Origin: Sulfuricaulis sp.
GTDB lineage: Bacteria; Pseudomonadota; Gammaproteobacteria; Acidiferrobacterales; Sulfurifustaceae
Assembly: GCF_024653915.1 (NCBI RefSeq)
Contig: NZ_JANLGY010000017.1
Coordinates: forward strand, 51,088-115,087
DNA length: 64,000 nt
Reading direction: 5' to 3'
Below are positions 228 through 45,499 of the stretch, in pieces. Every line of letters begins with the position of its first letter. The first letter of the stretch is position 1. The position numbers were made by a program, and so were the translations under genes. The notes beneath the pieces were generated by a model. It saw only the letters and a list, made by a program, of their open reading frames with translations, made no database searches and was not told the origin of the DNA.

Positions 228-229
228 TC

Positions 230-9173: not shown

Positions 9174-9185
9174 CGGAAAGAAATG

Positions 9186-9453
9186 AATAGACAGGATTTA
9201 CAGGGCGAAGCGGAGTAGTCGCCGATGTACTTAACGTACATCGGCGCCGCTGAGCGCCCGCACATGGATGTGCGGGCCGGGGAAAAACGAAGCCCTGCCG
9301 CGACGCCAGGGAAGGCATACTTGCCGTCCCTGGCGAGACCATGAAAACTTCGACATACTCGGCCCCGCCATCCGTGGCGGGGCGCTCGCCGGGACGAAGA
9401 CATGTTAAGTGTCTTCGTCTGTTTCCGGCTCGCCCTGCTTAATCCTGTCCATT
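9186..9453. repeat. ACAGGAT-type inverted repeat enclosing five internal hairpins (composite palindromic element)
   Basis: Outer arms aatagacaggatttacagggcg (9186-9207) and cgccctgcttaatcctgtccatt (9431-9453); internal stems at 9220-9246, 9256-9277, 9304-9335, 9362-9383 and 9393-9419. Confidence 0.9.
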
Positions 9454-9476
9454 TTCTGGTTTTTGCCTTTCTGAAA

Positions 9477-9505
9477 TTGCTTTCCCACGCCGGCATCGGT
9501 AACAT
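9477..9505 (+). promoter_or_regulatory. Putative sigma70 promoter of tpiA
   Basis: TTGCTT-17 bp-TAACAT followed by GC-rich CGCGCCC. Confidence 0.55.
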
Positions 9506-9551
9506 CGCGCCCGTTTTTCGAGAGATTTAAGACGAATATGGGGAGGTCCTG

Positions 9552-10310
9552 ATGACGAAGCGTCGGCCACTGGTGGCGGGCAATTGGAAGATGAATGGCT
9601 CGCGGACGGAATCTGCGGCCCTCCTGGACGGAATCAAAAAAGGCATCAGTTCCACGTCCAAGGCAGAAGCGGCTGTGTGCCCCCCGTATGTCCTGATACC
9701 GTTGGCGGCCGAGAAACTGGCCGGGAGTGCGGTGGCTTGGGGCGGGCAGAACCTGTCGGTGCATAAATCTGGCGCCTTTACCGGCGAGATCTCCGGTCCG
9801 ATGCTCAAGGATTACGGCTGTACTTATGTTATCGTCGGTCATTCCGAGCGTCGCACGCTGTATGGCGAAAATGACGCCATGGTGACTGAGAAGTACGGTG
9901 CGGCCCAAGCCGTGGGATTGATACCTATATTATGTGTTGGCGAGACCCTGCAGGAACGGGAAGCGAATCAGACCGAGGCGGTTGTAGCGCGCCAGCTTGA
10001 TGCCGTGCTGAGCAAGCATGGCATCGCCAGTTTCAAGAATGCCGTGATCGCTTATGAGCCCGTCTGGGCCATCGGCACTGGCAAGACGGCGACACCCCAG
10101 CAGGCCCAGGATGTGCACCGTTTTATCCGCAGCCGACTGGCGACCAAGGATAAAACCATAGCGGAAAGCACGCGCATTCTTTATGGCGGCAGCATGAAGG
10201 GCAGCAACGCGAAGGAGCTTCTGGCCCAGGCAGATATTGATGGGGGCTTGATCGGCGGGGCGTCGCTGCAAGCGGACGAGTTCCTGACGATTTGCCACGC
10301 AGCCGACTGA
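9552..10310 (+). CDS. tpiA: Triosephosphate isomerase
   Basis: VAGNWKMN, VGHSERR, AYEPVWAIGTG, LYGGS and LIGGASL motifs. Confidence 0.99.
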   Translation: MTKRRPLVAGNWKMNGSRTESAALLDGIKKGISSTSKAEAAVCPPYVLIPLAAEKLAGSAVAWGGQNLSVHKSGAFTGEISGPMLKDYGCTYVIVGHSERRTLYGENDAMVTEKYGAAQAVGLIPILCVGETLQEREANQTEAVVARQLDAVLSKHGIASFKNAVIAYEPVWAIGTGKTATPQQAQDVHRFIRSRLATKDKTIAESTRILYGGSMKGSNAKELLAQADIDGGLIGGASLQADEFLTICHAAD

Positions 10311-10343
10311 CAATTGCATATCCATGTGCATCGGAGTTAATTG

Positions 10344-19695: not shown

Positions 19696-19702
19696 GAATG
19701 TG

Positions 19703-19796
19703 GAACCGCAGATAAACGCAGATGAACGCAGATCGAAGCAAAGAACCAATAGAGTTATTTTTTAATCTGCGTTTATCCGCGTTCATCTGCGGTTTC
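19703..19796. repeat. Inverted repeat with 10-nt-periodic arms (CGCAGATRAA x3)
   Basis: gaaccgcagataaacgcagatgaacgcagat (19703-19733) and atctgcgtttatccgcgttcatctgcggtttc (19765-19796), between nuoI and nuoJ. Confidence 0.92.
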
Positions 19797-19812
19797 AAAG
19801 ATAATAATTATT

Positions 19813-22727: not shown

Positions 22728-24209
22728 ATGATGCTGGCCGAACATATCCTGAGTCTGGTGACATGGCTGCCGATCTTCGGCGGTATCGCGGTGCTTGCCA
22801 CCGGCAGTGATCGCAATGCCGATTACGCCCGCCAGCTGAGCCTCGTGATCGCTGTTCTGACTTTCATCGTTACACTGCCGCTGTATGCCAATTTCAACAG
22901 CGGCACGCATGCGATGCAGTTTGTCGAGGACCGTGCCTGGATCGAGGCTTTCAACATCCGTTATCGTCTGGGTATTGACGGCATCTCGCTGCTGCTGATC
23001 CTGTTGACGAGTTTCAGCACCGTGCTGGTCATTATTTCTGCCTGGAAGGTGATCGAGAAGAAGGTGGCGCAGTATTATGCCGCGTTCCTGATCATGGAAG
23101 GACTCATGATCGGCGTGTTCAGCGCGCTCGATGGCATCCTGTTCTACATTTTCTGGGAGGCCATGCTGGTCCCGATGTTCCTCATCATCGGCCTGTGGGG
23201 CGGGCCGAACCGCGTTTACGCCACCATCAAGTTTTTCCTTTATACCTTTCTCGGTTCGGTACTGATGCTGGTGGCCTTTATTTATCTTTACTATCAGGCC
23301 GGTAGTTTTGACATTCTCGCCTGGCACGGCGTTAAACTCGGGTCCACCCCTCAGATTCTCATCTTTCTCGCTTTCCTCACGGCCTTTGCCGTGAAGGTCC
23401 CGATGTGGCCGGTGCATACCTGGCTGCCGGATGCGCATGTTGAGGCGCCCACGGGAGGGTCCGTTATTCTGGCCGCGATCATGCTGAAAATGGGCGCCTA
23501 CGGTTTCCTGCGCTTCTCACTCCCCATCCTGCCGGACGCCTCGCATGAACTGGCGTGGCTCATGATCGCGCTCTCGCTCATCGCGATCGTGTACATCGGT
23601 CTGGTGGCACTGGTGCAGGAGGACATGAAAAAGCTGATTGCCTATTCATCTATTGCACACATGGGTTTTGTGACCCTGGGATTTTTCATATTCAACGTGC
23701 AGGGTATTGAGGGGGGTATCGTGCAGATGATCTCGCACGGTTTTGTTTCCGGCGCGCTGTTCCTGTGCGTGGGTGTTCTCTATGACCGTCTCCATTCACG
23801 CATGATCAAGGACTACGGCGGTGTCGCCAATCGCATGCCGGTGTTTGCCGCTTTCATGATGCTGTTCGCCATGGCCAACGCCGGTCTGCCCGGTACCTCC
23901 GGATTCGTGGGCGAGTTGCTGGTGATCCTGGGCGCGTTCCAGGCCAATGTCTGGTATGCCCTGGCCGCGGCCACGACGCTCGTGTTTGGCGCTGCCTACA
24001 CGCTGTGGATGTACAAGCGTGTAATTTTCGGGGCGGTTGCCAATGACAAGGTCGCCGCACTTACGGATGTCACTGCGCGCGAAATCGTGTTTCTCTCGCT
24101 ACTGGCCCTGGCCGTGCTGGTCATGGGGCTGTGGCCGTATCCGTTTCTCGATGTGATGCACGCGTCGGTGGATCACCTGTTGCAACAATCCATGACTTCA
24201 AAACTGTGA
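22728..24209 (+). CDS. nuoM: NADH-quinone oxidoreductase subunit M
   Basis: [11 protein letters not shown] and [23 protein letters not shown] motifs. Confidence 0.98.
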
Positions 24210-24216
24210 TAGCCGG

Positions 24217-25662
24217 ATGAAATTCGTCACGCCCGATATGATGCCCGCCATGCCCGAGATCTTCGTGTTCTCGATGGCCTGCGCGATCCTGGTGATCGAC
24301 CTGTTCCTGTCGGATCGTGCGCGCGTCGTTTCCTACTGGCTCACGCAGGCGACGCTGGTCGGCGCAGTTCTGTTGACGTTGAAAGTGGCAGCCACCGCGC
24401 CAGTATTCACCTTCAGCGGCATGTTTGTCGCGGACCGGCTTGCCGATCTGCTGAAGTTGGGTACTTACGTCATTACTTTCTTTGTTTTTGCCTATTCGCG
24501 TGATTATCTGCGTGACCGCGGGATGCTGCGAGGAGAGTATTTCGTGCTTGGCTTGTTCGGGGTGGTGGGCATGATGGTCATGGCCTCGGCCAGCCATTTC
24601 CTGACGCTGTATCTGGGTCTCGAACTGCTGTCACTCTCGCTCTACGCCATGATCGCTTTCCAGCGCGATTCCGGCACCGCGACCGAGGCCGCGATGAAGT
24701 ATTTCGTTCTTGGCGCTATCGCCTCCGGCATGTTGCTCTACGGCATGTCCATGATCTACGGCGCGACCGGCAGCCTCGAAATCGCCGCGGTTTCCAAGGC
24801 CATCGGTATGATGTCCCCGGACAATATCATTCTCATTTTCGGCCTGGTATTCGTGATTTCCGGATTGGCTTTCAAGATCGGCGCGGTGCCGTTCCACATG
24901 TGGGTCCCGGACGTGTATCACGGCGCTCCCACGGCCGTGGCGCTGTACATCGGCACGGCCCCGAAACTCGCAGCCTTCGCGCTGTTCCTGCGCCTGCTGG
25001 TCAGCGGGCTCGAACCGCTCGCGGGTTCCTGGCAATCCATGCTCATGATCATTGCCGTATTGTCCATGGCCGTTGGCAACCTCATCGCCATCGCACAAAC
25101 TAACATCAAGCGCATGCTGGCGTATTCTTCGATCTCGCACATGGGTTTCTTCCTGCTCGGTATATTGAGCGCGGAGCCGAATGGTTACAGCTCTTCTCTG
25201 TTTTATATCCTGGTCTACGCCGTCATGAGCGCCGGTGCCTTCGGCATGATCATCTTGCTGTCGCGCACGGGTTTTGAGGCGGAACGACTCGAGGATTTCA
25301 AGGGGCTCAACCAGCGTAGCCCATGGCATGCGTTTCTAATGTTGTTGCTCATGCTGTCGATGGCCGGCGTGCCGCCGACCGTGGGTTTCTACGCCAAACT
25401 GCTCGTCATCCAGTCCGTCATCAAGATTGGCATGATTCCGCTGGCCGTGGCGGCGGTGCTGTTCGCCGTCATCGGGGCCTACTATTATCTGCGCGTTATC
25501 AAGCTCATGTATTTTGACGATGCCACGGAGAAGGCCCCGATTCGCGCGAGCGGGGATATGCAGGTGCTGATCGGCTTCAATGCGCTGTTGCTCATCGGCA
25601 TCATGCCGTGGGTGGGCGCCCTTATCGAGCTGTGCCGGCAGGCGATCAGGACCTTGGCGTGA
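24217..25662 (+). CDS. nuoN: NADH-quinone oxidoreductase subunit N
   Basis: [30 protein letters not shown] and [11 protein letters not shown] motifs. Confidence 0.98.
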
Positions 25663-28124: not shown

Positions 28125-28148
28125 GTATTATAAAATAAAATGAATTCG

Positions 28149-28237
28149 AACCACGGGGGACACGGGGGAAGACATGAAAGTTAAGAATGACATTCCCGTT
28201 TTTCTGATACTTTTTACTCCCCGTGTTCCCCGTGGTT
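28149..28237. repeat. Inverted repeat with 9-nt-periodic arms (CACGGGGGA x2)
   Basis: aaccacgggggacacggggga (28149-28169) and tccccgtgttccccgtggtt (28218-28237). Confidence 0.9.
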
Positions 28238-28283
28238 TAAGCTTTAGGTTTTGATTTTGTTAGGTTTCTTAATTACCTGACCG

Positions 28284-29137: not shown

Positions 29138-29148
29138 TCGCGTCCTGC

Positions 29149-29225: not shown

Positions 29226-29232
29226 AACTCCA

Positions 29233-29259
29233 AAGGCCCTTCAAGGGCCTTATTGTTTT
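29233..29259 (+). terminator. Terminator after tRNA-fMet
   Basis: AAGGCCCT-TCA-AGGGCCTT followed by ATTGTTTT. Confidence 0.65.
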
Positions 29260-29339
29260 GGATTTCTGGCCACTTTCCGATTGTCGGGGAAGTGCTTATA
29301 ATTCAGCCGGGTTTCAGCCGTTTCAAGAGTAAGTATAAG

Positions 29340-29367
29340 AAGTGGGCCGCGTGCCCACTTTTGTTTT
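29340..29367 (+). promoter_or_regulatory. Terminator-like hairpin in the rimP-nusA leader
   Basis: AAGTGGGC-CGCGT-GCCCACTT-TTGTTTT, downstream of a perfect TATAAT (29297-29302). A leader terminator before rimP-nusA is consistent with known NusA autoregulation. Confidence 0.65.
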
Positions 29368-29383
29368 ATGGGGTCGGAAATTT

Positions 29384-29839
29384 ATGCAGGGTGCACGGGC
29401 GGATTTGCGAAAGCTGCTTGAGCCCGGTGTTAGCGCCCTGGGCTTTGAGTTGGTGGACGTGGAGATGGCCGGTAGCCACCACTACACCACGCTGCGGGTG
29501 TATATAGACAGTCCCCGGGGCGTAAACGTGGACGATTGCGCCAGAGTCAGCCGGCAACTGTCGGCGCTGCTGGATGTTGAGGACCCGCTGCCGGGGCAAT
29601 ACACCTTGGAGGTGTCATCGCCCGGCCTGGATCGGCCGCTGGTCAAACCGGAGGACTTCAAGCGGTTCGTGGGTGAAACGATCAAGGTGAAGATGCATGT
29701 GCCGTTGCAGGGGCGCAAGAACTTCTCCGGCAAACTGGTGGACGTGGCAGCGGACCATGTCGTGGTGGAAGTGGACAAAGAGATTTTTAACCTGGCGTTC
29801 GATGCCATGGAGCGGGCACGGTTGGTGCCCCGGTTTTGA
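29384..29839 (+). CDS. rimP: Ribosome maturation factor RimP
   Basis: LRVYIDSPRGVNVDDCARVSR and YTLEVSSPGLDRPL motifs. Confidence 0.98.
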   Translation: MQGARADLRKLLEPGVSALGFELVDVEMAGSHHYTTLRVYIDSPRGVNVDDCARVSRQLSALLDVEDPLPGQYTLEVSSPGLDRPLVKPEDFKRFVGETIKVKMHVPLQGRKNFSGKLVDVAADHVVVEVDKEIFNLAFDAMERARLVPRF

Positions 29840-29867
29840 ACGGCGGGTGTGACGGGAGATAGCGATT

Positions 29868-31370: not shown

Positions 31371-31391
31371 TTGCCCCGCTTCCGGGAGTTT

Positions 31392-33845: not shown

Positions 33846-33849
33846 AATT

Positions 33850-33942
33850 AATAGACAGGATTTACAAGATTAACAGGATTACGGCTGGGCACGTTTTCTT
33901 TTAATCCTGTAAATCCTGTAAATCCTGTTAATCCTGTCCATT
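33850..33942. repeat. Inverted repeat with 9-nt-periodic arms (ACAGGATTW; 3 + 4 units)
   Basis: aatagacaggatttacaagattaacaggatta (33850-33881) and aatcctgtaaatcctgtaaatcctgttaatcctgtccatt (33903-33942). Confidence 0.93.
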
Positions 33943-33951
33943 TCCGTTCTT

Positions 33952-34323
33952 ATGCAAAAAGTTTCCAATCGGCCGCGACGTGTCGCGGAACTCATCCGGC
34001 GTGAACTTGCCATGCTCATCCCGCGCGAGCTCGACGATCCCAAGGCGCACCAGATCACGTTAACCGGCGTGGAAATGTCGCGCGACATGTCTTCCGCGCG
34101 AATCTATTTTTCTTTGTTGAGCGGTGCCGTGGAGGCGAAAAAGTTGACCAAGTCGCTCAACCGCGCCGCCGGATTTCTGCGGCATGTCCTCATGGGAAGG
34201 GTATCGTTGCGAAGCGTGCCGGTGCTGCGGTTTTATTTCGATGAATCGGTGGAACGTGGCGCGCGCATCGACAGCCTGATTGAACAGGCCATCACCGAAG
34301 ACCAGCAGACCAAAAATAAATAG
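33952..34323 (+). CDS. rbfA: Ribosome-binding factor A
   Basis: RPRRVAELIRREL, TGVEMSRDMSSARIY and VPVLRFYFDESVERG motifs. Confidence 0.97.
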   Translation: MQKVSNRPRRVAELIRRELAMLIPRELDDPKAHQITLTGVEMSRDMSSARIYFSLLSGAVEAKKLTKSLNRAAGFLRHVLMGRVSLRSVPVLRFYFDESVERGARIDSLIEQAITEDQQTKNK

Positions 34324-34415
34324 ACAGGATCAACAGGATTCAGCAGGATTAACAGGATTTTTGAAATTTTGAATCTTTAATCCTGTAAATCTTGAGTAAT
34401 CCTGTTAATCCTGTG
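34319..34415. repeat. Inverted repeat with 9-nt-periodic arms (ACAGGAT; 4 + 4 units) overlapping the rbfA stop
   Basis: aatagacaggatcaacaggattcagcaggattaacaggattt (34319-34360) and aatcctgtaaatcttgagtaatcctgttaatcctgtg (34379-34415). Confidence 0.92.
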
Positions 34416-34446
34416 AAATTTTTTTCGAAATAAGGATATCGAAGCA

Positions 34447-35364
34447 GTGAAGCGGCAACGACGTAATTGTGATGCGATAAATGGCGTGATGCTGCTCGAT
34501 AAGCCGGTGGGGCTGACTTCGAACCAGGCCTTGCAAACGGTGAAGCACCTGCTCAACGCCTGCAAGGGTGGGCACTCGGGCAGCCTCGATCCCATCGCCA
34601 CCGGACTGTTGCCGCTGTTCTTTGGCGAGGCGACCAAGCTGACCCAGTTTCTGCTCAATGCCGATAAGCGCTACTGGAGCGTCTTCCGGCTCGGGGTTAG
34701 CACCACGACCTACGATAGCGAAGGTGAGGCGACCGCTACGCGTCCCGTCAGCGTCACCCGGCGCGATATCGAGCGCGCGCTGGAAAGTTTTCGTGGCGAG
34801 ATAGAACAGGTACCGCCGATGTATTCGGCCATCAAGCATCAGGGCGAGGCGCTTTATAAACTGGCCCGGGCCGGCGTGGTGATCGAGCGCGAAGCGCGCC
34901 ATGTGACGATCCATGAGATCAAGCTGGTGAGTTTCGAAAATGATTTGCTGACGCTGGAAATCGCCTGCACCAAGGGCACTTATGTTCGCAGCCTGGCGCA
35001 CGATCTGGGTGAGGTGCTGGGATGCGGCGCGCACGTGGTGCAGTTGCGCCGACTCGGCACCGGCCGCGTTGGTATCGAGCAGGCGATACCGCTTGACCGA
35101 TTGCAGGCACTGGAAAGCCCGGTGGAACGGGCGCAGCTGCTGCTACCCGTGGACAGCGTGCTGCATGAAGTTCCGGACGTGCACCTGACGACGCTGGCGG
35201 CCCATTACCTGATACAGGGGCAATCGGTGTCGACACAGCATGGCTTCAAACCCGGCTGGGTGCGCTTGTACGAGGGCGACAAGCGCTTTCTCGGCATGGG
35301 GGAGGTGATGGATGATGGGCGCGTGGCGCCGCGGCGCCTGCTCGCACTGGGTGAAAATCCCTGA
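34447..35364 (+). CDS. truB: tRNA pseudouridine(55) synthase TruB
   Basis: LDKPVG, GHSGSLDPIATGLL, QVPPMYSAIK and CTKGTYVRSLAHDLG motifs; GTG start. Confidence 0.98.
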   Translation: MKRQRRNCDAINGVMLLDKPVGLTSNQALQTVKHLLNACKGGHSGSLDPIATGLLPLFFGEATKLTQFLLNADKRYWSVFRLGVSTTTYDSEGEATATRPVSVTRRDIERALESFRGEIEQVPPMYSAIKHQGEALYKLARAGVVIEREARHVTIHEIKLVSFENDLLTLEIACTKGTYVRSLAHDLGEVLGCGAHVVQLRRLGTGRVGIEQAIPLDRLQALESPVERAQLLLPVDSVLHEVPDVHLTTLAAHYLIQGQSVSTQHGFKPGWVRLYEGDKRFLGMGEVMDDGRVAPRRLLALGENP

Positions 35365-35417
35365 AACAGGCATGAAACAGGCGGTCCGTACGGCGCGTTC
35401 GGACCTGATATTGGCGG

Positions 35418-35446
35418 TTGAGGCGGGGTCCCCCCGCAGGTAGAAT
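35418..35446 (+). promoter_or_regulatory. Putative sigma70 promoter of rpsO
   Basis: TTGAGG-17 bp-TAGAAT followed by an ACGCGCCC discriminator. Confidence 0.65.
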
Positions 35447-35492
35447 ACGCGCCCTTCAAAGTGTAATTGACAGCAAATTGAGGTAAATATTG

Positions 35493-35762
35493 ATGACCGT
35501 TACCCGCGAGACCAAGGCCAAGGTCATGCAGGATTACCAGGCGCACGAAGGAGACACCGGTTCGCCCGAGGTCCAGGTTGCCCTGCTGTCCACGCAAATC
35601 GAGGAATTATCCAGCCACTTTCAGGCCCATCCGAAGGATCATCATTCGCGCATCGGCCTTTTGAAAATGGTGAACAAGCGCCGTCAGCTGCTTGAATATC
35701 TGAAAAATAACGACAGCGACCGCTACCGCACGCTCATTGAGCGGCTCGGCCTGCGCAAGTAA
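35493..35762 (+). CDS. rpsO: 30S ribosomal protein S15
   Basis: [28 protein letters not shown] and LIERLGLRK motifs. Confidence 0.99.
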
Positions 35763-35800
35763 GCATTCAAGCCAGTAACGAATAACACGAGGACAAGGTC

Positions 35801-37897
35801 TTGGCAAAAATCACGAAATCATTTCAGTACGGCAAACATACCGTCACCCTGGAAACCGGCGAGATCGCGCGCCAGGCCAGCGGTGCCTGCATCGCCAGCA
35901 TGGGCGATACCGTGGTGCTGGCCACCGTGGTAGCGAAGAAAGAACCCATGCCCGGCAAGGATTTTTTCCCCATGACCGTGGATTATCAGGAAAAAACCTT
36001 CGCCGCCGGCCGCATCCCGGGTGGATTCTTCAAGCGTGAAGGCCGACCCTCGGAAAAGGAAATTCTCACCTGCCGTCTCATCGACCGTCCCATCCGCCCG
36101 CTGTTCCCCGAAGGTTACACCAACGAAGTCCAGATTATCGCCACCGTCATCTCGGTGGACCCGGACATCGATGCGGATATCGTCGCCATGCTTGGTTCCT
36201 CCGCGGCGCTCAAGCTTTCGGGCGCACCGTTCAACGGCCCCGTCGGTGCCGTGCGCGTCGGTTACAAGGACGGCCAGTACCTGCTCAATCCGGGTAACAA
36301 GGATCTCGTCGATTCACAGCTCAACCTCGTCGTCGCCGGCACCGTGAAAGCCGTGCTGATGGTCGAATCCGAGGCACAGCAACTGTCGGAAGAAGTCATG
36401 CTCGGCGCCGTCATGTTCGGCCATGAGCAGATGCAGACGGCTATCAAAGCTATCAACGAACTCGTCAAAGATGCCGGCGTGCAGCCCTGGGCCTGGCAAC
36501 CGCCGCTGGAAGACACTTCACTCAAGAACACCTTGGAGACCGAATTCGCCCCGCTCATTGTCGAGGGTTATCGCATCAAGGAAAAGACTGCACGTCAGGA
36601 CCGCATCGCCGAAATTCACGAGATGGCGGTTGGCAAGCACGCGGCCGAAGGCGCCCCCGCGGGCACCAAGGAAAAAGTCCAAAAAATCATTGGCGATATC
36701 GAATACCGCACCGTACGCGACAAGATTCTTTCCGGTGAGCCGCGCATTGACGGGCGTGACACGCGCACCGTGCGCCCCATCACCGTGCGTACCGGCGTGT
36801 TGCCGCGCACCCACGGTTCCGCGCTGTTCACGCGTGGCGAAACCCAGGCGCTGGTCGTCACCACGCTCGGCACCGGGCGCGACGCGCAAATCATCGACGC
36901 CCTGGAAGGCGAGCGCAAAGACCCCTTCATGCTGCATTACAACTTTCCCCCGTACTCGGTGGGTGAATGCGGTCGTGTCGGTAGCCCCAAGCGCCGCGAG
37001 ATCGGTCACGGTCGGCTGGCCAAGCGCTCCATGATTGCCGTATTGCCGGACATGGAAACCTATCCTTATATCCTGCGCGTGGTGTCTGAAATCACCGAAT
37101 CCAACGGCTCCAGCTCCATGGCCAGTGTGTGTGGCGCATCACTGTCGATGATGGACGCCGGTGTACCCATTAAAGCCCCGGTCGCGGGTGTCGCGATGGG
37201 CCTGATCAAAGAGGAAAAGCGCTTTGCCGTGCTCACCGACATCATCGGTGACGAGGACCATCTCGGCGACATGGACTTCAAGGTCGCCGGCACCACGAAT
37301 GGCGTCACTGCTCTGCAGATGGACATCAAGATCGAAGGCATCAACAAGGAAATCATGGAAGTCGCGCTCAAGCAGGCGAAAGAAGGCCGGCTGCATATCC
37401 TGGGCGAAATGGCCAAGGTGATTTCCACGCCGCGCGCCGAACTCTCGGAATACGCCCCGCGCATCATCGCCATCAAGATCAATCCGGAACGCATCCGCGA
37501 CGTCATCGGCAAGGGTGGCGCGGTTATCCGCGCGTTGTGCGAGGAGACCGGCTGCACCATCGATATCGAGGATGACGGCACGGTCAAGATCGCTTCGGCC
37601 GACAACGTCGCCGCGCAGGAAGCTGTGCGTCGCGTTAAGCAGCTCACGGCGGATATCGAAGTCGGCATGGTCTACGAGGGCAAGGTTGCCAAGCTCATGG
37701 ACTTCGGTGCCTTCGTCACCATCCTGCCCGGCAAGGATGGCTTGGTGCATATTTCGCAGATCTCGCGCGAGCGCGTCGAGAACGTTGCTGACAAGCTGAA
37801 GGAAGGCGAAATGGTCAAGGTCAAAGTACTGGAAGTGGACAAGCAGGGCCGCATCCGCCTGTCCATGAAGGCGCTGGAAGAAGAACCGGTCTCCTGA
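35801..37897 (+). CDS. pnp: Polyribonucleotide nucleotidyltransferase
   Basis: [34 protein letters not shown] and [12 protein letters not shown] motifs; KH and S1 domains; TTG start. Confidence 0.99.
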
Positions 37898-37917
37898 GCA
37901 TTGCACGCTTGAGCAGT

Positions 37918-37945
37918 AAAAAAGGGAGCTTCGGCTCCCTTTTTT
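37918..37945. terminator. Intrinsic terminator after pnp
   Basis: A6-GGGAGC-TTCG-GCTCCC-T6. Confidence 0.93.
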
Positions 37946-38032
37946 GTGCTTGTCTTGTTTAGGCCGTGCTGGCTGGTTAAGCTGGTGGACGTTAAATGAT
38001 TGGCTAGTTTTTTCAGAATCGGAGGATGCAAG

Positions 38033-38803
38033 ATGGCTAAATTCAAGATACAGGCCACTGGCAGATTCCTGATGCTATCGGCGTTCTGTATTGTCCTCAA
38101 CGGATGTGTAGGACTGGAAACTTACATAGTAAGTAGTCCAATAAGTAATTCATCACAAGTAGATATCAGCAAGAAAGGGCGGTTTGTACTTGATGACACA
38201 GTTATCTTTGTATCGCCAACAAATTACGTTCATGTAAATAGCGGTGCACTGTGGTTTTCTGTGATCCCGGTAACTGAGGATATTCCACAAAAGGACCAAG
38301 GTTTCAGCCCCGGTTACTATATAGGTTCTTTCCAGAAACCGGGATTCTTTATATTCGAGATATTCTTTGCTGTTGGAAAAACCCCCATTATATTTTACCC
38401 CGGTGACATTGTCCTTCGTCATCGTGGTAAAGAATGGCGACCAGTAAATACATACGAACTAGTCAAAATGCATGATGCAACCAATCCGTTTTGGGGCCAT
38501 GAACCATTTAGGCAACTTTGTGCTGGAAAAGAACAGGACACACACAAACGTCATTATTATCACAACCCGATTATGGTGACACATTATGATGGCACCACTA
38601 ATCAACTCCCAGGTATCGGTGTTCCCAAAAGAATCCAGCTTGAGCAAGATACAAACCGTTGTTATGCCCTAAAGTTCTTGGTTGATCCCCCAGATCCAAG
38701 AGAAGAGTTTGATATTGAATTTAGTTCTCTGCAGATAAATAATCGAAATGTTCCGATTCGGATTAAATACGCCCCATTAACTGTGAAGGAAGGACACGGG
38801 TGA
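38033..38803 (+). CDS. AT-rich hypothetical lipoprotein, probably horizontally acquired
   Basis: GGAGG RBS; signal peptide ending in lipobox-like VLNG/C; hand GC counts of 22/60 and 25/60 on lines 38101 and 38161, versus 42/60 on pnp line 36841. Confidence 0.75.
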   Translation: MAKFKIQATGRFLMLSAFCIVLNGCVGLETYIVSSPISNSSQVDISKKGRFVLDDTVIFVSPTNYVHVNSGALWFSVIPVTEDIPQKDQGFSPGYYIGSFQKPGFFIFEIFFAVGKTPIIFYPGDIVLRHRGKEWRPVNTYELVKMHDATNPFWGHEPFRQLCAGKEQDTHKRHYYHNPIMVTHYDGTTNQLPGIGVPKRIQLEQDTNRCYALKFLVDPPDPREEFDIEFSSLQINNRNVPIRIKYAPLTVKEGHG

Positions 38804-38843
38804 AGCCCATCAATCTCGGATCTCGCGATAACGGAGCTTCGCC

Positions 38844-39322
38844 ATGTCATTGACCCTGACTTCCACGGCGTTCCGCCACAACGGTGAAATCCCTGAGCGG
38901 TACACCTGTGACGGCGAGGATATTTCGCCGCTGTTAGCATGGTCAGGCGTGCCGTCCGAAGCCAAAAGTCTGATCTTGATCGTAGACGATCCCGATGCTC
39001 CCGATCCCACAAGGCGCCCAAAATGACTTGGGTGCATTGGGTGCTCTATAACATGCCACCGACAGCCACTGGATTACCGGATGCGGTAGCGGCAAAAAGT
39101 TTGCTCAAGGGAACGCTGATAGGAATCAACGACTGGAAGCGCACGGCTTATGGCGGTCCCTGTCCGCCCATCGGTCGCCATCGTTATTTTCACAAACTAT
39201 ACGCGCTCGACACGATGTTGCCGGACATGAACCGGCCAACCAAGGCTAAGGTGGAGAGTGCCATGCAAGGGCATATCCTTTTCCAGGCTGAGATCGTCGG
39301 CACTTATCAACGATCTCCATGA
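38844..39322 (+). pseudogene. YbhB/YbcL (PEBP/RKIP-like) protein split by a frameshift near 39009
   Basis: The 5' frame carries YTCDGEDISP...IVDDPDAPDP and stops at TGA 39024-26; the -1 frame continues KAPKMTWVHW...GPCPPIGRHRY. Confidence 0.85.
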
Positions 39323-39383
39323 TGCTTGTGTGGTCGGAGTGGCTTTACAGGAAGCGCATCGTCCTTTAGCCTCGGTGTCAGAC

Positions 39384-40280
39384 ATGTACATTGCCGGTCA
39401 AAAAAAGAATAACGATCCGCTGCAAAGCTCGCGCCTCCATTCTGCCCGTCTGTTGTTTGCAGTGGTCTGCCTGTCTGTCTTGGCGGCTTGCGGGACGATG
39501 AAGAACAGCCCCGATGAGGCGGCGGCAGGGGATTCCGGCGCTCAGATAGATGCGGCGACAGAGGAACGGAACAACGTCAAAGATCCGTTCGAGGGCCTCA
39601 ACCGCGTTATGTACACGTTCAACGACAAAATGGACCGGTACCTGCTCAAGCCGGTCGCCAAGGGTTACCGCGCGATCACGCCCAAACCGGTCAGCAAGGG
39701 CATTTCGAATTTTTTCAGCAATCTGCATGATCCGGCGATCATGTTGTACAACTTCCTGCAGGGCAAACCGAAGGCAGGCGCCTCAGACCTGGGGCGTTTT
39801 CTCGTTAATTCCACCATCGGCATTGCCGGCCTGTTCGATGTCGCCACCAAGATGGGGCTGGAAAAGCACAACGAGGATTTTGGCCAGACGCTGGCGGTGT
39901 GGGGCGTGGGTGACGGACCCTACCTGGTGTTGCCGTTCTTCGGGCCGAGCAATATACGCGAGGGCGCATCCATCCCCGTGGATTGGTATACCTATCCGCC
40001 CAATCACATGGAGGAACAGAGCACGAACGTCAAGATGTTTGCCGTGGAAGTGGTGGATCGGCGCGCGCAGCTGCTGGATGCCGGCGATATTCTCGATCAG
40101 GCCGCGGGAGCTGACCCGTATATTTTTGTGCGTGAGGCTTTCCGCCAGCGCCGTCTCAGCCTGATTTACGATGGCAATCCGCCGCAGGCCGCACCGCCCC
40201 CGGGCCTGTTCGAGGATGATGAACCGGTGCCCAACACATCTGCCCAACCCGCGCCGGGTGCGCCTCCTCAGTCGAGGTAG
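39384..40280 (+). CDS. mlaA: MlaA/VacJ family outer-membrane lipoprotein
   Basis: Lipobox LAAC; DPFEGLNR, RFLVNSTIGIAGLFD, EDFGQTLAVWG, PYLVLPFFGPS and DPYIFVREAFRQRR motifs; start codon uncertain. Confidence 0.93.
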   Translation: MYIAGQKKNNDPLQSSRLHSARLLFAVVCLSVLAACGTMKNSPDEAAAGDSGAQIDAATEERNNVKDPFEGLNRVMYTFNDKMDRYLLKPVAKGYRAITPKPVSKGISNFFSNLHDPAIMLYNFLQGKPKAGASDLGRFLVNSTIGIAGLFDVATKMGLEKHNEDFGQTLAVWGVGDGPYLVLPFFGPSNIREGASIPVDWYTYPPNHMEEQSTNVKMFAVEVVDRRAQLLDAGDILDQAAGADPYIFVREAFRQRRLSLIYDGNPPQAAPPPGLFEDDEPVPNTSAQPAPGAPPQSR

Positions 40281-40437
40281 CCGTAACCCAGCAGCGCAGG
40301 GAACTGCGCCGGATTGCGTGGTTTGACGGGAAATTGGTCGATTCTCGGTCAAAGCTTGTTATTCGCCGTTATCGTTACCGGGAAACAATGATCTGGCTCT
40401 GACTGCTGATTTTCAGCGGGTTTTTCGGCCGTGCCCC

Positions 40438-40466
40438 TTCATTTCTCGCGGTATCGAGGGTAAAAT
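40438..40466 (+). promoter_or_regulatory. Putative sigma70 promoter of the rpsP operon
   Basis: TTCATT-17 bp-TAAAAT followed by a CGCGCCC discriminator. Confidence 0.55.
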
Positions 40467-40537
40467 CGCGCCCTTTCTCGAACCTTGCAAGGCCCTGTCC
40501 GGCCGGGCGGGGCTTCTTAACGAAGTGAGGTAGATCA

Positions 40538-40786
40538 ATGGTAACCATACGTCTGGCCCGTGGCGGCGCGAACAAGCGGCCCTATTACCGCATCATTGTC
40601 GCTGACCGGCGTCGTGCGTTGAACGGCAATAACATTGAGCGCATCGGATTTTATAATCCGATGGCGACCGCAAAGGAAATCAAGCTGAAGGTGGACATGG
40701 AGCGCGTGCAGTACTGGCTGGGCAAAGGCGCCAAGCCGACCGATCGCGTGGCTGATCTGCTCAAGCAGGCCGCCAAAACTTCTTAA
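40538..40786 (+). CDS. rpsP: 30S ribosomal protein S16
   Basis: MVTIRLARGGANKRPYYRIIVAD...ERIGFYNP. Confidence 0.99.
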   Translation: MVTIRLARGGANKRPYYRIIVADRRRALNGNNIERIGFYNPMATAKEIKLKVDMERVQYWLGKGAKPTDRVADLLKQAAKTS

Positions 40787-40792
40787 GTCATC

Positions 40793-41308
40793 ATGGCCGA
40801 CCCGTCACGCCCTGACGGCTTGGTGCATTTCGGCCGAATCACCGGTCTGTTCGGTGTGCAGGGTTGGGTCAAGGTTTTTTCCCATGCCCGTCCGCGTGAA
40901 TCGATTATCGACTATTCGCCCTGGCTTGTGAAAACCGCCGGAGACTGGCGCGAGTTGGTGGTCGAAGAAGGGCGCGCGCAGGGCAAGGGCGTGGTGGCAA
41001 AGCTCGCCGGCGTGGATGACCGCGATCAGGCGAGCCAGCTGATCGGCGCGGACATCGAGATAAAGTTTTCGCAGTTGCCGCCGCTGTTGAAGGGCGAATA
41101 TTACTGGACGCAGCTGGTGGGGCTGGAGGTTGTCAATCTCGCCGGAGAACGTCTCGGTAAAGTGGACCACCTCGTCGAGACCGGCGCGAACGATGTGCTG
41201 GTGGTGCTCAACGGGAAGGAGCGCTGGCTGCCGGTGACGGCGAAAGTCATCCGCGGGGTGGATCTGGAAGCGGGCGTGATCCGGGTGGATTGGGAAGCGG
41301 ATTTCTGA
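40793..41308 (+). CDS. rimM: Ribosome maturation factor RimM
   Basis: GLFGVQGWVKV, GEYYWTQLVGLEV, ETGANDVLVV and VDWEADF motifs. Confidence 0.98.
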   Translation: MADPSRPDGLVHFGRITGLFGVQGWVKVFSHARPRESIIDYSPWLVKTAGDWRELVVEEGRAQGKGVVAKLAGVDDRDQASQLIGADIEIKFSQLPPLLKGEYYWTQLVGLEVVNLAGERLGKVDHLVETGANDVLVVLNGKERWLPVTAKVIRGVDLEAGVIRVDWEADF

Positions 41309-41311
41309 TCC

Positions 41312-42055
41312 ATGCGTATTGACGTTATAAGTTTGTTTCCGCCGATGTTCGAGGCCGTGAGCGCTCACGGCATTACCGGACGGGCGGTCAAGAACGGATT
41401 GCTGACGCTGCGGGTGTGGAACCCGCGCGATTACACGGAAGACAAGCACCGCAGCGTGGATGACCGGCCTTATGGCGGCGGCCCGGGTATGGTGATGATG
41501 AATGAGCCGTTGACGCGCGCGATCCGCGCGGCACGCGGCGAACAGACGCAGACGGCGAAGGTGATTTACCTTTCGCCGCAGGGCCGGCGGCTGGATCATG
41601 CCGCGGTGCTGGAGATGTCAAAGCGCGAGGGCATGATTCTTCTCGCCGGGCGTTACGAAGGTATTGACGAGCGCCTGATCGAGACAGAAGTGGACGAGGA
41701 GTGGTCAATGGGTGACTACGTCCTCTCCGGCGGTGAACTGGCGGCGATGGTATTGATCGACGCCGTGACGCGCCAGCTTCCCGGGGCCTTGGGCGACGAA
41801 GATTCAGCGCAGCAGGATTCCTTCGTGGAAGGCCTGCTGGATTGCGAACATTACACGCGGCCGGAAGAGTATGCCGGGCGTAAAGTGCCGGAAGTGCTGT
41901 TGTCGGGCGATCACGAAAAGATCCGCCGCTGGCGTCTCAAGCGGTCGCTGGGACGGACCTGGTTGCGGCGGCCGGATTTGCTGGAAAAGTTGACGTTGAA
42001 CAGTGAGCAGAAACAGCTGCTGGAAGAATTTAAAGAGGAATATTTGAATAAATAG
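41312..42055 (+). CDS. trmD: tRNA (guanine37-N1)-methyltransferase
   Basis: [26 protein letters not shown] and [11 protein letters not shown] motifs. Confidence 0.99.
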
Positions 42056-42132
42056 AACCACAGATAAACACGGATAAAAAACTTCCGGGTTTTTATTGAA
42101 TAATCTGTGTTAATCCGTGTCCATCCGTGGTT
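42056..42132. repeat. Inverted repeat with 10-nt-periodic arms (CACRGATAAA; 2 + 3 units) abutting the trmD stop
   Basis: aaccacagataaacacggat (42056-42075) and atctgtgttaatccgtgtccatccgtggtt (42103-42132). Confidence 0.9.
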
Positions 42133-42165
42133 AAAAGTATATTTTGAGAATCTAGAGGTGAAAAA

Positions 42166-42513
42166 ATGAGCAAGATCATGCAGGAACTGGAAGCGCGGAT
42201 GATGGCGGACAATAAGGTCCCCGAGTTTTCTCCGGGTGACAGCGTTATCGTCCATGTGAAGGTGAAGGAAGGTGAGCGCGAACGTCTCCAGGCCTTTGAG
42301 GGCATGGTCATCGCGCGCCGGAATAGCGGTTTCAACTCCTCCTTTACAGTACGCAAGACTTCCTACGGCGAAGGGGTGGAGCGTGTGTTCCCGCTGTACA
42401 GCTCGGCCATCGCCAAGATCGAGGTCAAGCGCAAAGGCGACGTACGCCGCGCCAAGCTTTATTATCTGCGTGATCTCGCCGGCAAGGCCGCTCGTATTCG
42501 CGAGAAGGTCTGA
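42166..42513 (+). CDS. rplS: 50S ribosomal protein L19
   Basis: [28 protein letters not shown] and RRAKLYYLR motifs. Confidence 0.99.
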
Positions 42514-42521
42514 GTTTTGTT

Positions 42522-42627
42522 GTCATGCCGGCGGAAGCCGGCATTCAGGTAGCACCAGAAAAGCCGCCCATCCGGGCGGCTTTTTATTTTCCCTCTCCCC
42601 TTGCGGGAGGGGGTTAGGGAGAGGGGT
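42522..42627. repeat. Composite: 27-nt GTCAT...CAG palindrome, intrinsic terminator (42559-42585) and 36-nt CCTCTCCCC palindrome
   Basis: GTCATGCCGGCGGAAGCCGGCATTCAG; AAAAGCCGCCC-ATCC-GGGCGGC-TTTTT; cctctccccttgcgggagggggttagggagaggggt. Confidence 0.88.
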
Positions 42628-42674
42628 GTAGTAATTCTGCCAAATCGCCTTCGGCGATGATTAACCGCTAATTG

Positions 42675-42886
42675 CGGGTTGCTCCGCCCCGCACCCTGGG
42701 TGACTTTTGTTTCGGCAAAAGTCACCAAAACCACTCCCCCCGGAGCGCGCGACTTCCTTCTCCGCTCCTCGCCCCACCGGGCGCTCGACCAACTCGCCGG
42801 GCGCGAAATACGCGCCTCGGGCTCAAACAGGGTCTCGCTTAAAAACTCCCGGCGGGGCTGCGGTGCTCGACGCGCGCTACGGGGTC
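42675..42886. repeat. About 210-nt multi-stem non-coding element upstream of ogt
   Basis: Perfect 11-bp stem GGTGACTTTTG/CAAAAGTCACC (42699-42726); long-range pairs ccccggagcgcgcg/cgcgcgctacgggg and ccccaccggg/cccggcgggg; inner GGCGCG-AAATA-CGCGCC. Confidence 0.75.
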
Positions 42887-42935
42887 TGAAGAAACCGTGG
42901 TGGCACTGATCGCTGTGCCCGTGGATAATGAATCC

Positions 42936-43481
42936 ATGCGGAACGGGAGAACATCCAAAGCCAGGGACTACGACGCGGTTGTGGCCACGCCCATCGGCCG
43001 GGTCGGGATCGTGGTGCAGGACGACGCGCTGGTGGACGTGAACTTTCTCGGCATGTCCGCCGCCTTGCAGGCCCCGCGCACGAACATGGCGCGCCGGGCT
43101 TGTCGCCAGATCCGATCCTATTTCATCAATCCCCGTCTTTCCTTTCGCCTTCCGTTGAAGCTGTCGGGGACGGCGTTCCAGCAGCGCGTGTGGCGCGCGT
43201 TGCAGCGCATTCCCGTGGGCCAGACGCTCAGTTACGGCGTGCTGGCGAAGAAACTCGATACCTCGGCACGTGCCGTGGGCAATGCCTGCCGTGCCAACCC
43301 TGTCCCCATCATCGTTCCGTGTCATCGCGTCGTCGCAGCGGGTTACGGCGATGTACAGGGAAGTACAAGTGTCGCGGGAAGCAGGAAGCTGAGAGCGACC
43401 GTCGGCGGTTTCATGGGCAAGCGCTCGGGTTCCCCGTTGAATCTGAAGCATTGGCTGCTGGAGCATGAGCGCAGGGAATAA
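42936..43481 (+). CDS. ogt: Methylated-DNA-protein-cysteine methyltransferase (Ogt family) with an extra loop
   Basis: FQQRVWRALQRIPVGQTLSYG, ARAVGNAC and NPVPIIVPCHRVV (active-site Cys) motifs, KHWLLEHE end; start uncertain. Confidence 0.93.
   Translation: MRNGRTSKARDYDAVVATPIGRVGIVVQDDALVDVNFLGMSAALQAPRTNMARRACRQIRSYFINPRLSFRLPLKLSGTAFQQRVWRALQRIPVGQTLSYGVLAKKLDTSARAVGNACRANPVPIIVPCHRVVAAGYGDVQGSTSVAGSRKLRATVGGFMGKRSGSPLNLKHWLLEHERRE
43344..43400. repeat. Palindromic element apparently inserted in frame in ogt
   Basis: TGTAC-AGGGAA-GTACA (43352-67) and GTCGC...GCGAC (43371-99); encodes YGDVQGSTSVAGSRKLRAT with atypical codons. Confidence 0.72.
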
Positions 43482-44361
43482 GGACCTCATCGAACGTTTT
43501 TGCGACGCTCTGTGGTTGCAGGATGGGCTGAGCGCGAACACGCTCGAAGCCTACCGGCGTGATCTGGAAGGACTGGATCGCTGGTTTACCAAACGCGGCA
43601 CGGCGCTGGCATCGGCCTCGCGCGCCGATCTGCAGGAGTATCTTTCCCAATGCGTCAGCAAAAAAAGTGCACGTACGGCTGCGCGATTGCTGTCCAGCCT
43701 GCGCCGGTTTTACGGTCATCTGGTGCGTGAAGAAAAAATCAAAACCGACCCTACGGCGCTGATCGACTCGCCCAAGCTCGGCCGGCCCTTGCCGAAATCG
43801 CTGTCTGAAGAGCAGGTGGAAAAACTGCTGGAATCGCCGGATGTCGCGAAGCCTCTCGGCCTGCGCGACCGCGCCATGCTGGAAACGCTCTATGCCACCG
43901 GCCTGCGCGTGTCGGAGCTGGTGGGCCTGACGCTGTCGCAGGTGAGCCTGACGCAGGGCGTGGTGCGCGTCATCGGCAAGGGCGACAAGGAACGGCTGGT
44001 GCCGCTGGGCGAAGAAGCCATCTCGTGGATCAGCCGCTATCTCGCCGAAGGTCGTCCCAAGCTGGTGCGCAGCCGCTCGACCGATGCGCTGTTCACCACC
44101 ACCCGCGGCGGCCCCATGACCCGCCAGGCCTACTGGCATAACCTCAAAAACCACACCCGCAAGGCCGGCATTGAACCCAAAAGACTGTCACCCCACACCC
44201 TGCGCCACGCTTTTGCCACGCATCTGCTCAACCACGGCGCCGATTTACGCGTGGTACAGATGCTCCTCGGCCACGCCGACCTTTCCACCACGCAGATTTA
44301 CACCCACGTCGCACAGGCGAGATTGAAGACATTGCACGAGCAGCATCATCCGAGGGGGTAG
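43465..44361 (+). CDS. xerD: Tyrosine recombinase XerD
   Basis: RDRAMLETLYATGLRVSEL, GKGDKERLVP, SPHTLRHAFATHLLNHGADLRVVQMLLGH and TQIYTHV; all catalytic R-K-H-R-H-Y residues present. Confidence 0.97.
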   Translation: MSAGNKDLIERFCDALWLQDGLSANTLEAYRRDLEGLDRWFTKRGTALASASRADLQEYLSQCVSKKSARTAARLLSSLRRFYGHLVREEKIKTDPTALIDSPKLGRPLPKSLSEEQVEKLLESPDVAKPLGLRDRAMLETLYATGLRVSELVGLTLSQVSLTQGVVRVIGKGDKERLVPLGEEAISWISRYLAEGRPKLVRSRSTDALFTTTRGGPMTRQAYWHNLKNHTRKAGIEPKRLSPHTLRHAFATHLLNHGADLRVVQMLLGHADLSTTQIYTHVAQARLKTLHEQHHPRG

Positions 44362-44497
44362 GGTATCGCGCGCTTTGCGCGCGATACCATTCAAGGCCTG
44401 GATTCCGGTTTTCACCGGAATGACGAAAGGGAAAAAGCCGCCTTTCGGCGGCTTTTTATTTACCCCTCTCCTTAATCCTCTCCCGCAAGGGGAGAGG
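44362..44497. repeat. Composite: 12-bp hairpin, inverted 27-nt palindrome, bidirectional terminator (44432-44457) and inverted 36-nt palindrome
   Basis: GGTATCGCGCGC-TTT-GCGCGCGATACC (44362-88); CTGGATTCCGGTTTTCACCGGAATGAC (44398-424); A5-GCCGCC-TTTC-GGCGGC-T5; acccctctccttaatcctctcccgcaaggggagagg (44462-97). Confidence 0.88.
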
Positions 44498-44504
44498 AGA
44501 GATA

Positions 44505-45251
44505 TCAATGATAAGCCGACCGATTAATCTGATCGTGATCCACATCCGGATCAAACACCTCCACTCCCGGTACTCGTTTGTAGCCGAGGACGAGGGCGAT
44601 CTTGTGGATGAGGGTTTTCCAGTTGAGTGAGTTGACGCGGCGACGCAGGACGTCGTTGACTTCTAGCGTCAGTTTTTCATGTTCCTTTTCCAGCGCCGGC
44701 AGCTTGTGAAAATAGCGCAGCGCGAGCCAGGCGTAGGCCACCGGCAGCAGTTTGACGATCAGGGACGGGTTTGCCATCGCAAGCCACATGACGATGAAGC
44801 TGACGCCGGCGAAAATGAAGAACAAACCATAGCGCACGGCCTTGGCGTACTCGTCGCGATTGCGTTCCATGGCCTCGCGCAGTCGCCGCTCGGCATTGCG
44901 TGAAGCGATGGAGTGCGCGTAATGGATGTCGCGGAACATGCTCAGCGTTTTGAGCATGCGCTCGCTATGACGCCGGTTCTCGATGCCGAATGAATCCAGC
45001 GCCGATTGGAGGCTTTCGCGGAACTGGCGGTAATTCGGCGTGGCAGCCGGTTCCTTGTAGCGGTCGGCGGTGTGGTTGATCAGGTAACGCAGTTCCAGCA
45101 CGTTCGCGATCTTCATCGGAAAGCGCAAGCTGATGAACTTGGTGTAGAACGTGTGAAAGCCGTCAGGCGTCAGGTTCAGCCCAGAGAAATCCTGCGCCAG
45201 TTCCCGCTGCTGAGCCCTTTCTTTCCTTCGTTTGCTAGTTGTTTTTTTCAT
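44505..45251 (-). CDS. Hypothetical protein with two C-terminal-half TM helices
   Basis: Long ORF with GC3-rich codons; hydrophobic pair GLFFIFAGVSFIVMWLAM and LIVKLLPVAYAWLAL; start ATG 45251 inferred. Confidence 0.75.
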   Translation of the reverse strand: MKKTTSKRRKERAQQRELAQDFSGLNLTPDGFHTFYTKFISLRFPMKIANVLELRYLINHTADRYKEPAATPNYRQFRESLQSALDSFGIENRRHSERMLKTLSMFRDIHYAHSIASRNAERRLREAMERNRDEYAKAVRYGLFFIFAGVSFIVMWLAMANPSLIVKLLPVAYAWLALRYFHKLPALEKEHEKLTLEVNDVLRRRVNSLNWKTLIHKIALVLGYKRVPGVEVFDPDVDHDQINRSAYH

Positions 45252-45421
45252 GAATGGAAAAGCTCGCTCAATATCCTGCCCCGTTTTCATGATATTGAAC
45301 CGTCCTGTAGTTCTAATGGAAACTAGGATAACGGATAAAGCAGGGGTTTTCTACCGCCGGGCTGGCGCCCCGGGAACGGTCGTAGCTTAGAGACTGTGTC
45401 AGAACAAATACAAAAATCATG

Positions 45422-45499
45422 AACCACGGGGTCCACGGGGAGAAATGAATAGGATCATGCCTTCATCCCAGCCTGGTTTTCCCCGTGCTCCCCGTGGTT
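45422..45499. repeat. Inverted repeat with 9-nt-periodic arms (CACGGGG x2) just after the rep stop
   Basis: aaccacggggtccacgggga (45422-41) and tccccgtgctccccgtggtt (45480-99). Confidence 0.92.

Follow-up and report, generated by a model that had tools for sequence, protein, structure and literature searches.

What are the periodic hairpins that lie between genes of a Sulfuricaulis sp. genome, and are they related to any gene of their own? The question arises from a stretch of 64,000 nucleotides (hereafter the window; G000:C31:51088-115087, where G000 is the source genome, a 2.73-Mb draft of 31 contigs with 57.8% G+C, and Cn its contigs; G0xx denotes genomes and L0xx loci in relatives or in a broad set), which contains nine elements with inverted arms made of short tandem units, several of them opening with an ATG-led mini-ORF. 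An earlier note on this DNA had proposed that such repeats are gene-less derivatives of a cassette in which two arms enclose an open reading frame (ORF), and that this ORF encodes a GxxExxY-family nuclease that mobilises them. We find that the arms do belong to such a cassette and that the periodic repeats are probably gene-less members of a superfamily of hairpin cassettes; the role of the encoded protein as the mobiliser finds no support. We call the class, defined in the present analysis and unpublished, periodic-arm hairpin cassettes, the criterion being inverted arms that each contain at least two tandem 7-10-nt units.

GxxExxY genes lie between periodic arms

The source genome has one TIGR04256 gene (C10:75273-75620, 139.8 bits, E 1e-40, curated cut-off 35 bits). 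It is bracketed by CGCCAAG arms (G000:C10:75233-75705), which share their unit family with the window hairpin at 48508-48620, and its frame opens at ATGAACTGCCAAGACGCCAAG, yielding MNCQDAKTPEKG... The residues G19, E22, Y25, D61, E71, and K73 of the GxxExxY family (TIGR04256 / Pfam PDDEXK_3) are invariant in 12 aligned relatives, this gene included. The C10 gene is a member of the family with nuclease-type D ... E-x-K residues and, judging from them, encodes a putative nuclease; searching PDB sequences with the GxxExxY profile gave no match at an E-value of 0.01 or lower.

Among 40 related genomes searched for GxxExxY and four-helix-bundle genes, 12 contain GxxExxY genes (0-3 copies each), and 18 of the 19 loci have periodic inverted arms of the unit families A, C, D, E, or G described below. 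A broad set was obtained by a pattern scan of one genome per species, which gave 590 confirmed GxxExxY relatives; the best 80 of 590 were examined, and come from Planctomycetota, Cyanobacteria, Chloroflexota, Acidobacteriota, Verrucomicrobiota, Proteobacteria, Bacteroidota, candidate phyla, and one Methanothrix. At least two tandem CRCNRRK units stand upstream of the gene, on the coding strand, at 65 of 79 loci (a count without matched control windows), which suggests that the unit theme has been conserved along with the protein. The predicted arm-ORF-arm cassette with a GxxExxY gene is thus found in the source genome, in its relatives, and across phyla. One broad locus labelled Acidiferrobacteraceae (L079) has a left arm and immediate upstream flank identical to those of the cassette of G012 (L004), which suggests that the genus is probably a member of this family.

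The nuclease gene is not the sole cargo, since two TIGR02436 four-helix-bundle genes of G000 also lie between arms, here built from 7-nt units (AGTAGCAAGT next to rpsI and a tRNA gene, and GTGATAAGT); the gene-bearing loci of this genome are on C10 (GxxExxY), C2, and C5. In the relatives, arms were found at about 13 of the 16 four-helix-bundle loci that could be analysed, and their units are always 7 nt long. At the rpsI-tRNA junction, a four-helix-bundle gene with such arms lies directly upstream of the tRNA gene in L002, L028, L029, L031, and L037.

Cassettes follow the direction of their surroundings: both neighbours share the cassette's orientation in 54 of 66 clear cases, and no cassette is anti-oriented between co-directional genes. 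At the trpE-trpG junction a GxxExxY cassette is present in L006, L007, L017, L008, and L010 (also L015), from four families of the order, and G000 has a clean 40-nt spacer; the pattern reflects either an ancient insertion and later loss or repeated insertion at one site.

Start codons at the cassette ends

In the C10 cassette the TGA of a heptosyltransferase-like host gene overlaps the ATG of the cassette ORF, as ...AAAAATGAAC. Among the 53 cassettes with a long co-directional host ORF ending at most 80 nt from the first in-frame start, the host TGA overlaps that start at +1 (NTGA) in 11, every other offset occurring at most twice. An ATG at most 24 nt upstream of the first unit was found at 23 broad loci, and at 14 of these it is in frame and opens into the domain. 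Read-through of the left arm from an in-frame terminal ATG explains the low-complexity N-termini of the NHGDTE-, NHRGTE-, and NRQDAK-types, so that those named in the earlier note for small GxxExxY proteins are genuine. This arrangement suggests that the cassette is translated by coupling to the host message, the ATGA end serving as a stop/start coupling device, and we infer that the cassette lacks its own promoter and is carried on the operon transcript.

The ends of gene-less copies carry the same word. Each hairpin end of the source genome (276 in all) was oriented inward and the 22 nt outside its first unit were scored against 1000 shuffles. ATG occurs at 120 ends (shuffles: mean 78.1, standard deviation 7.3, maximum 106), about 5.8 standard deviations above the shuffles, and CAT at 57, against an intergenic background of 27%. 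Its position is characteristic of the family, at offset -12 in 22 of 42 CGCAGAG (E), 15 of 40 CGCAAAG (G), 12 of 56 CACGGGG (B), and 4 of 28 CGCCAAG (D) ends, and at offset -5 in 15 of 70 ACAGGAT (A) ends. Of the 120 ATG ends, 90 read ATGA, and TGA is the commonest word (144 ends). The end motif comprises (T)ATGA, 4-7 nt, and ACC outside the first unit (consensus ATATGA-n-TTTT-n-ACC), and recurs inverted at the opposite end; in the E subfamily with the best conservation, the inverted repeat extends to CTAGGGAAG-TCTGA ... TCAGAGA-TTCCCTAG. The proposal that element ends are marked by ATG-AAY therefore holds for the ATG, and not for the longer word, present at only 24 of 276 ends: the ATG belongs to a conserved terminal word, it is not where a real small gene begins with ATG-Asn, and the mini-ORFs arise as by-products. 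Those reported for the plus strand of the window are exact (9183-9218, MNRQDLQGEAE; 28140-28184, MNSNHGGHGGRHES; 45419-45448, MNHGVHGEK; each closed by a stop codon), and so are the minus-strand readings MDRIKQGE (about 9455) and MDRINRIYRIYRI (about 33941).

Could these ATGs be a chance product of AT-rich flanks, with meaningless mini-ORFs? The flanks are A/T-rich and ATG-AAY is rare, but the excess over the shuffles, the fact that CAT is half as frequent, and the recurrence of one fixed offset in four unit families make this very improbable. We consider it even less likely that the mini-ORFs are translated as small or leader peptides with their own function: although the ATG is conserved at element ends, no ribosome-binding site lies upstream, the lengths scatter from 0 to 190 codons (median 19), the peptide sequence is set by the unit and varies between families, and half of the ATGs are antisense to the operon.

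Loss of the cassette interior

At one orthologous site, five relatives (L019, L011, L012, L014, L020) carry a full ACAGGAT-armed GxxExxY cassette, and the source genome (C29:28553-28723) retains only the outermost ACAGGAT units, AATAGACAAGATT (C29:28553-28565) and TTAATCCTGTGAATTCGAATG (C29:28703-28723), with 40 nt of other sequence and an entire CGCAAAG hairpin in between. A second case is L021 (genome G021), where intact CGCAGAG arms enclose a GxxExxY gene that keeps profile positions 2-62 and the C-terminal VLKDGIRRFVNG, having lost about 45 codons, including the ExK, and acquired a frameshift. The emptied orthologous site and the half-deleted gene show interior loss twice, which upholds this part of the claim that the repeats derive from cassettes. 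Internal stops or frameshifts are also present in L014, L015/L022, L016, and L020.

Clean empty sites of G000 where relatives have cassettes include, besides trpE-trpG, the nuoM-nuoN junction in the window: relatives G012 and G008 carry a CGCAAAG-armed GxxExxY cassette exactly there. As the earlier note stated, the window has no GxxExxY ORF, and none of its nine elements encloses a GxxExxY or four-helix-bundle gene; with no enclosed gene and no remnant in the loops (see below), the window copies are gene-less members.

Hairpins in the window and in the genome

A search of the whole source genome, limited to loops of at most 300 nt, yielded 138 periodic-arm hairpins of at least seven unit families: A, ACAGGAT (35 copies); B, CACGGGG (28); E, CGCAGAG (21); G, CGCAAAG (20); D, CGCCAAG (14); C, CRCRGAT (13); and F, NCAAGT (7). 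The unit period is 7-10 nt and the loops are mostly of 20-60 nt. A rough gene caller puts 137 of the 138 in intergenic DNA and 101 of 136 between neighbours that run in the same direction; of the 151 ends facing the 3' end of a gene, 113 have the host stop codon no more than 30 nt from the first unit. Many are located inside operons, such as nuoI-nuoJ and infB-rbfA-truB. The window elements are collected in Table 1.

Table 1. Periodic-arm elements and one empty site in the window (z-scores relative to dinucleotide shuffles)
Element	Position	Strand	Location	Ends and other features	RNA fold
Degenerate CACGGGG-type hairpin	147..229		fused to carA 3' end	carA frame runs through left arm	
273-nt composite repeat	9183..9455		between glmM and tpiA	ACAGGAT-type ends ATGAATAGACAGG ... 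CCTGTCCAT; interior of ~200 nt made of small hairpins rich in GC	
Hairpin, 10-nt units ACGCAGATRA	19701..19797		nuoI-nuoJ gap		-49.3 kcal/mol, z -9.4
Empty site	24207..24219	+	nuoM stop to nuoN start	7 nt (TGAtagccggATG)	
CACGGGG-unit hairpin	28140..28240			left end ATGAATTCGAACC opens 14-codon mini-ORF	z -8.0
ACAGGAT-unit hairpin	33850..33942		infB-rbfA gap	right end, minus strand, ATGGACAGG	z -6.6
ACAGGAT-unit hairpin	34318..34418		rbfA-truB gap		z -7.3
CACAGAT/CACGGAT 10-nt-unit hairpin	42055..42133				z -3.7
CACGGGG-unit hairpin	45419..45499			left end ATGAACC opens 9-codon mini-ORF	z -5.2
CGCCAAG 8-nt-unit hairpin	48508..48620				z -8.7

Folded as RNA, the window hairpins reach -25 to -51 kcal/mol (z -3.7 to -9.4). 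In the folded structures, at 19701-19797 and others, single unpaired positions recur where units meet, so that the stems are regularly interrupted rather than perfect; such interruptions may protect the DNA palindrome or tune recognition by RNase III. At the Rfam gathering score the only matches in the window are two tRNAs, those at 9100-9560 being sub-threshold chance matches. Rho-independent terminators were also considered: a scan of 28000-47900 calls classical terminators elsewhere, and none of the five periodic hairpins as a whole.

Several elements are merged with their neighbours. The hairpin at 147-229 lengthens carA by about 27 residues before its stop, and the 11-residue stretch that had been noticed inside carA is a C-terminal tail read through the degenerate arm; since the frame runs through the hairpin, the C-terminus of a real protein is supplied by a repeat element. 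The carB start (position 230) lies in the TCATG end of the same hairpin, 4 nt after the carA stop. The rbfA stop, TAG at 34321-34323, falls within the hairpin end AATAGACAGG.

The 273-nt block consists of five hairpins, and its interior is unrelated to GxxExxY. It has three full copies with 89-100% identity, among them C17:86476-86745 (90%) and C29:29957-30216 (89%), and partial copies at the ends of contigs C2, C10, C19, and C28, with one near the end of C18; being multi-copy, with copies at contig ends, it breaks the assembly. Other small repeat families are nested in periodic-arm loops (G000:C22:28842-29075, C22:10110-10311, C15:3944-4143, and C2:77735-78000), one of them a 200-nt GTAGGTTGGGTC... 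element and another a CCCCTCCC/GGGAGGGG hairpin, and the loops appear to be preferred landing sites for other repeats. The rbfA-truB gap contains a different palindromic repeat, GTAGGGTGGGCACCGCCCACC ... GGTGGGCGATGCCCACCCTAC, in L041, L048, and L050 (G009, G018, and G015, respectively), flanked in G009 by a duplicate of about 30 nt of the truB 5' end that looks like a long target duplication.

The two arms change in concert

Orthologous cassettes differ in their units in a coordinated manner. At trpE-trpG, in five genomes of four families, the units are CGCAAAG or CGCAGAG, and at the C10 site they are CGCCAAG in G000 and CGCCAGG in G006; in both cases all units, in the left and the right arm alike, show the one-base difference. 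Of the five genomes with the four-helix-bundle cassette at rpsI-tRNA, four show GCAAGT units and one GCGAGGG, and in the infB-rbfA gap of one genus there is either an A, C, F, TCAGCNG, or GTTTCNG hairpin or none. This concerted change points to one of three processes: selection for pairing, re-copying from arm to arm, or exchange with other copies.

Origin of the gene-less hairpins

We think it probable that the periodic repeats are gene-less cassette members. In this scheme a complete cassette consists of two inverted arms, each of 2-6 tandem units, around one small gene. Units of 8-10 nt (with cores such as CGCAGAG, CGCAAAG, CGCCAAG, CRCRGAT, CACGGGG, and ACAGGAT) accompany the gene for a GxxExxY PD-(D/E)XK-like mini-nuclease, and units of 7 nt a four-helix-bundle gene of the type found in the intervening sequences (IVSs) of 23S rRNA. 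Cassettes occupy operon gaps of a few bases, where one gene has stopped and the following one has yet to start, and they point the same way as the operon. There the TGA of the end word can terminate the host gene and the overlapping ATG start the cassette gene; translation through the left arm would then give rise to the low-complexity N-termini. Gene-less copies would arise by loss of the interior and persist as long hairpins in either orientation, with the terminal ATG as a leftover or a structural part of the end. Our best guess is that spread would depend on the nuclease, or on a host function, acting on hairpin or cruciform ends.

A number of observations weigh against this scenario, above all against its nuclease-driven form. 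The closed 2.9-Mb genome G014 is the richest in hairpins, with 180 unit pairs of CGCMRAG and 129 of ACAGGAT (controls 0-4), and has neither a GxxExxY nor a four-helix-bundle match. G019, with an A-type gene, has 61 A pairs and only 9 CGCMRAG pairs; G006, with three gene matches, has 52 CGCMRAG pairs and 9 A pairs; and five of the six families with 8-10-nt units have no resident gene in G000. Nearest-neighbour identity is 0.73-0.81 in all families, CGCCAAG, the one with the resident gene, being no younger. Neither the family alignment nor the comparison of filled and empty sites revealed a target-site duplication, and the outer boundaries are not sharp. Only about one-fifth of the cassettes use the terminal ATG, and many others start after the arm, sometimes with a purine-rich stretch from the last unit. 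In gene-less copies the ATG-bearing end is in sense to the operon 25 times and antisense 27 times, a weak test of in-place emptying because both cassette ends can carry the motif. Finally, a profile of 12 relatives found no GxxExxY remnant below E 0.3 in any G000 loop of 90-1500 nt, so that in-place emptying cannot be shown for most short copies. The idea that the ORF is the mobilising nuclease is not supported by these results: hairpin numbers are independent of the gene, no family looks young, no target-site duplication was seen, and the ATG ends have no sense bias. The identities and the gene-independent numbers indicate instead that the hairpins are old residents.

The most serious competing explanation makes the hairpins primary, as REP-like (repetitive extragenic palindromic) elements kept or tolerated by the host as stabilisers of mRNA 3' ends, RNase III sites, or operon punctuation, the genes being secondary lodgers and the short copies never having been cassettes. 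It would account for hairpins that abound without a resident gene, inside operons and directly after stop codons, in either orientation and very stable as RNA, for one infB-rbfA gap with five different unit families across one genus, and for the same design in two unrelated gene families. We nevertheless hold it to be rather unlikely, given that emptying is directly visible, once at an orthologous site and once as a half-deleted gene, that real cassettes use the start codon of the end motif in frame, that unit cores stay conserved alongside the gene family from phylum to phylum, and that many orthologous junctions are empty, with 1-8 nt between genes, which leaves no evident host need for hairpins. 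As for their movement, REPIN-like repeats could be moved by a Y1 (RAYT or IS200-type) transposase rather than by GxxExxY, and the general design does resemble that of REP doublets in a genome that encodes Y1_Tnp proteins. This seems to us highly improbable, as no periodic-arm hairpin is found within 3 kb of any Y1 gene in G000, the strongest Y1 match has its own, different hairpins, and the arms are without the conserved head of the REP type. The IS200-type Y1 transposase gene at G000:C24:129408-129764 (123.8 bits) is flanked by GC-rich hairpins, AAGCCCCCGGCTTTGCCGGGGG, unrelated to the periodic arms.

More tentatively than the cassette origin itself, we suggest that GxxExxY cassettes and gene-less hairpins might form an undescribed class of prokaryotic mobile elements, in which a PD-(D/E)XK protein of about 120 residues would recognise hairpin ends made of tandem units, the ATGA overlap would parasitise the stop/start junctions of operons, and the arms would be re-copied from each other, which would be why a one-base change reaches every unit of both; cassettes with a four-helix-bundle gene and 23S IVSs would be a sister branch.

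Relation to known systems and significance

A full-text literature search found no description of periodic-arm cassettes, and the papers that name GxxExxY do not treat repeats; the architecture is apparently undescribed. The closest known systems are REP/REPIN elements with their RAYTs, the 23S rRNA IVSs, and MITEs (miniature transposable elements with inverted repeats, descended from insertion sequences and not autonomous), each of which differs from the present elements in at least one defining feature. Like the hairpins studied here, REP/REPIN elements form many short palindromic intergenic copies per genome, are long-lived residents, and have few associated protein genes, themselves flanked by repeats (Bertels and Rainey 2011, PMC3116915). 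In contrast, our elements are associated with a PD-(D/E)XK-like mini-protein or a four-helix bundle instead of a Y1 HUH transposase, their arms are composed of tandem 7-10-nt units with many unit families per genome, and the gene is often absent where repeats are abundant, Y1 genes not being flanked by arms.

Intervening sequences with an S23p-type ORF also occur in the 23S rRNA of Leptospira. The IVS of Coxiella, with its S23p / PF05635 ORF, is likewise a small ORF boxed by inverted repeats in a transcribed host unit, and its stem is a substrate of RNase III (PMC4990558), which makes it a plausible model for the hairpins described here. The TIGR02436 family found between periodic arms in G000 and its relatives provides another likeness; the present elements, however, lie between protein genes or beside tRNA genes and not in 23S rRNA, and most are gene-less. 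With MITEs these hairpins share small size, terminal inverted repeats, multiple copies, and intergenic location, and in both cases a longer gene-bearing form has the same ends and is linked to the short one by internal deletion. They differ from them in that no target-site duplication was found, that the gene-bearing form encodes no recognised transposase, and that the arms undergo concerted evolution, orthologous copies having different arms. The Foldback elements of eukaryotes (Drosophila FB, Galileo; PMC3573991) also have long inverted ends of short tandem sub-repeats and are mostly gene-less, but they belong to another domain of life, with a very different size and other enzymes, and the likeness is architectural only.

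New here are the interpretation of the ATGA as an overlap of stop and start, the emptied orthologous site, the marked difference in orientation between elements with and without a gene, and a gene-free genome rich in hairpins. For genome annotation, the hairpins create spurious low-complexity ORFs and false N-termini (of the MNHGEHGE-, MNRQDAK-, and MDRINRI-types), lengthen or replace the C-termini of real proteins (carA, rbfA), and disrupt assemblies where contigs end. The GxxExxY (PDDEXK_3) proteins make up a very large family without known function, distributed from Archaea to Cyanobacteria, and a DNA architecture tied to it, with about 140 gene-less copies in the source genome and the ATGA junction, provides testable hypotheses for both the protein and the repeats. 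If a nuclease-driven mechanism were true, these cassettes would represent a new kind of minimal mobile element.

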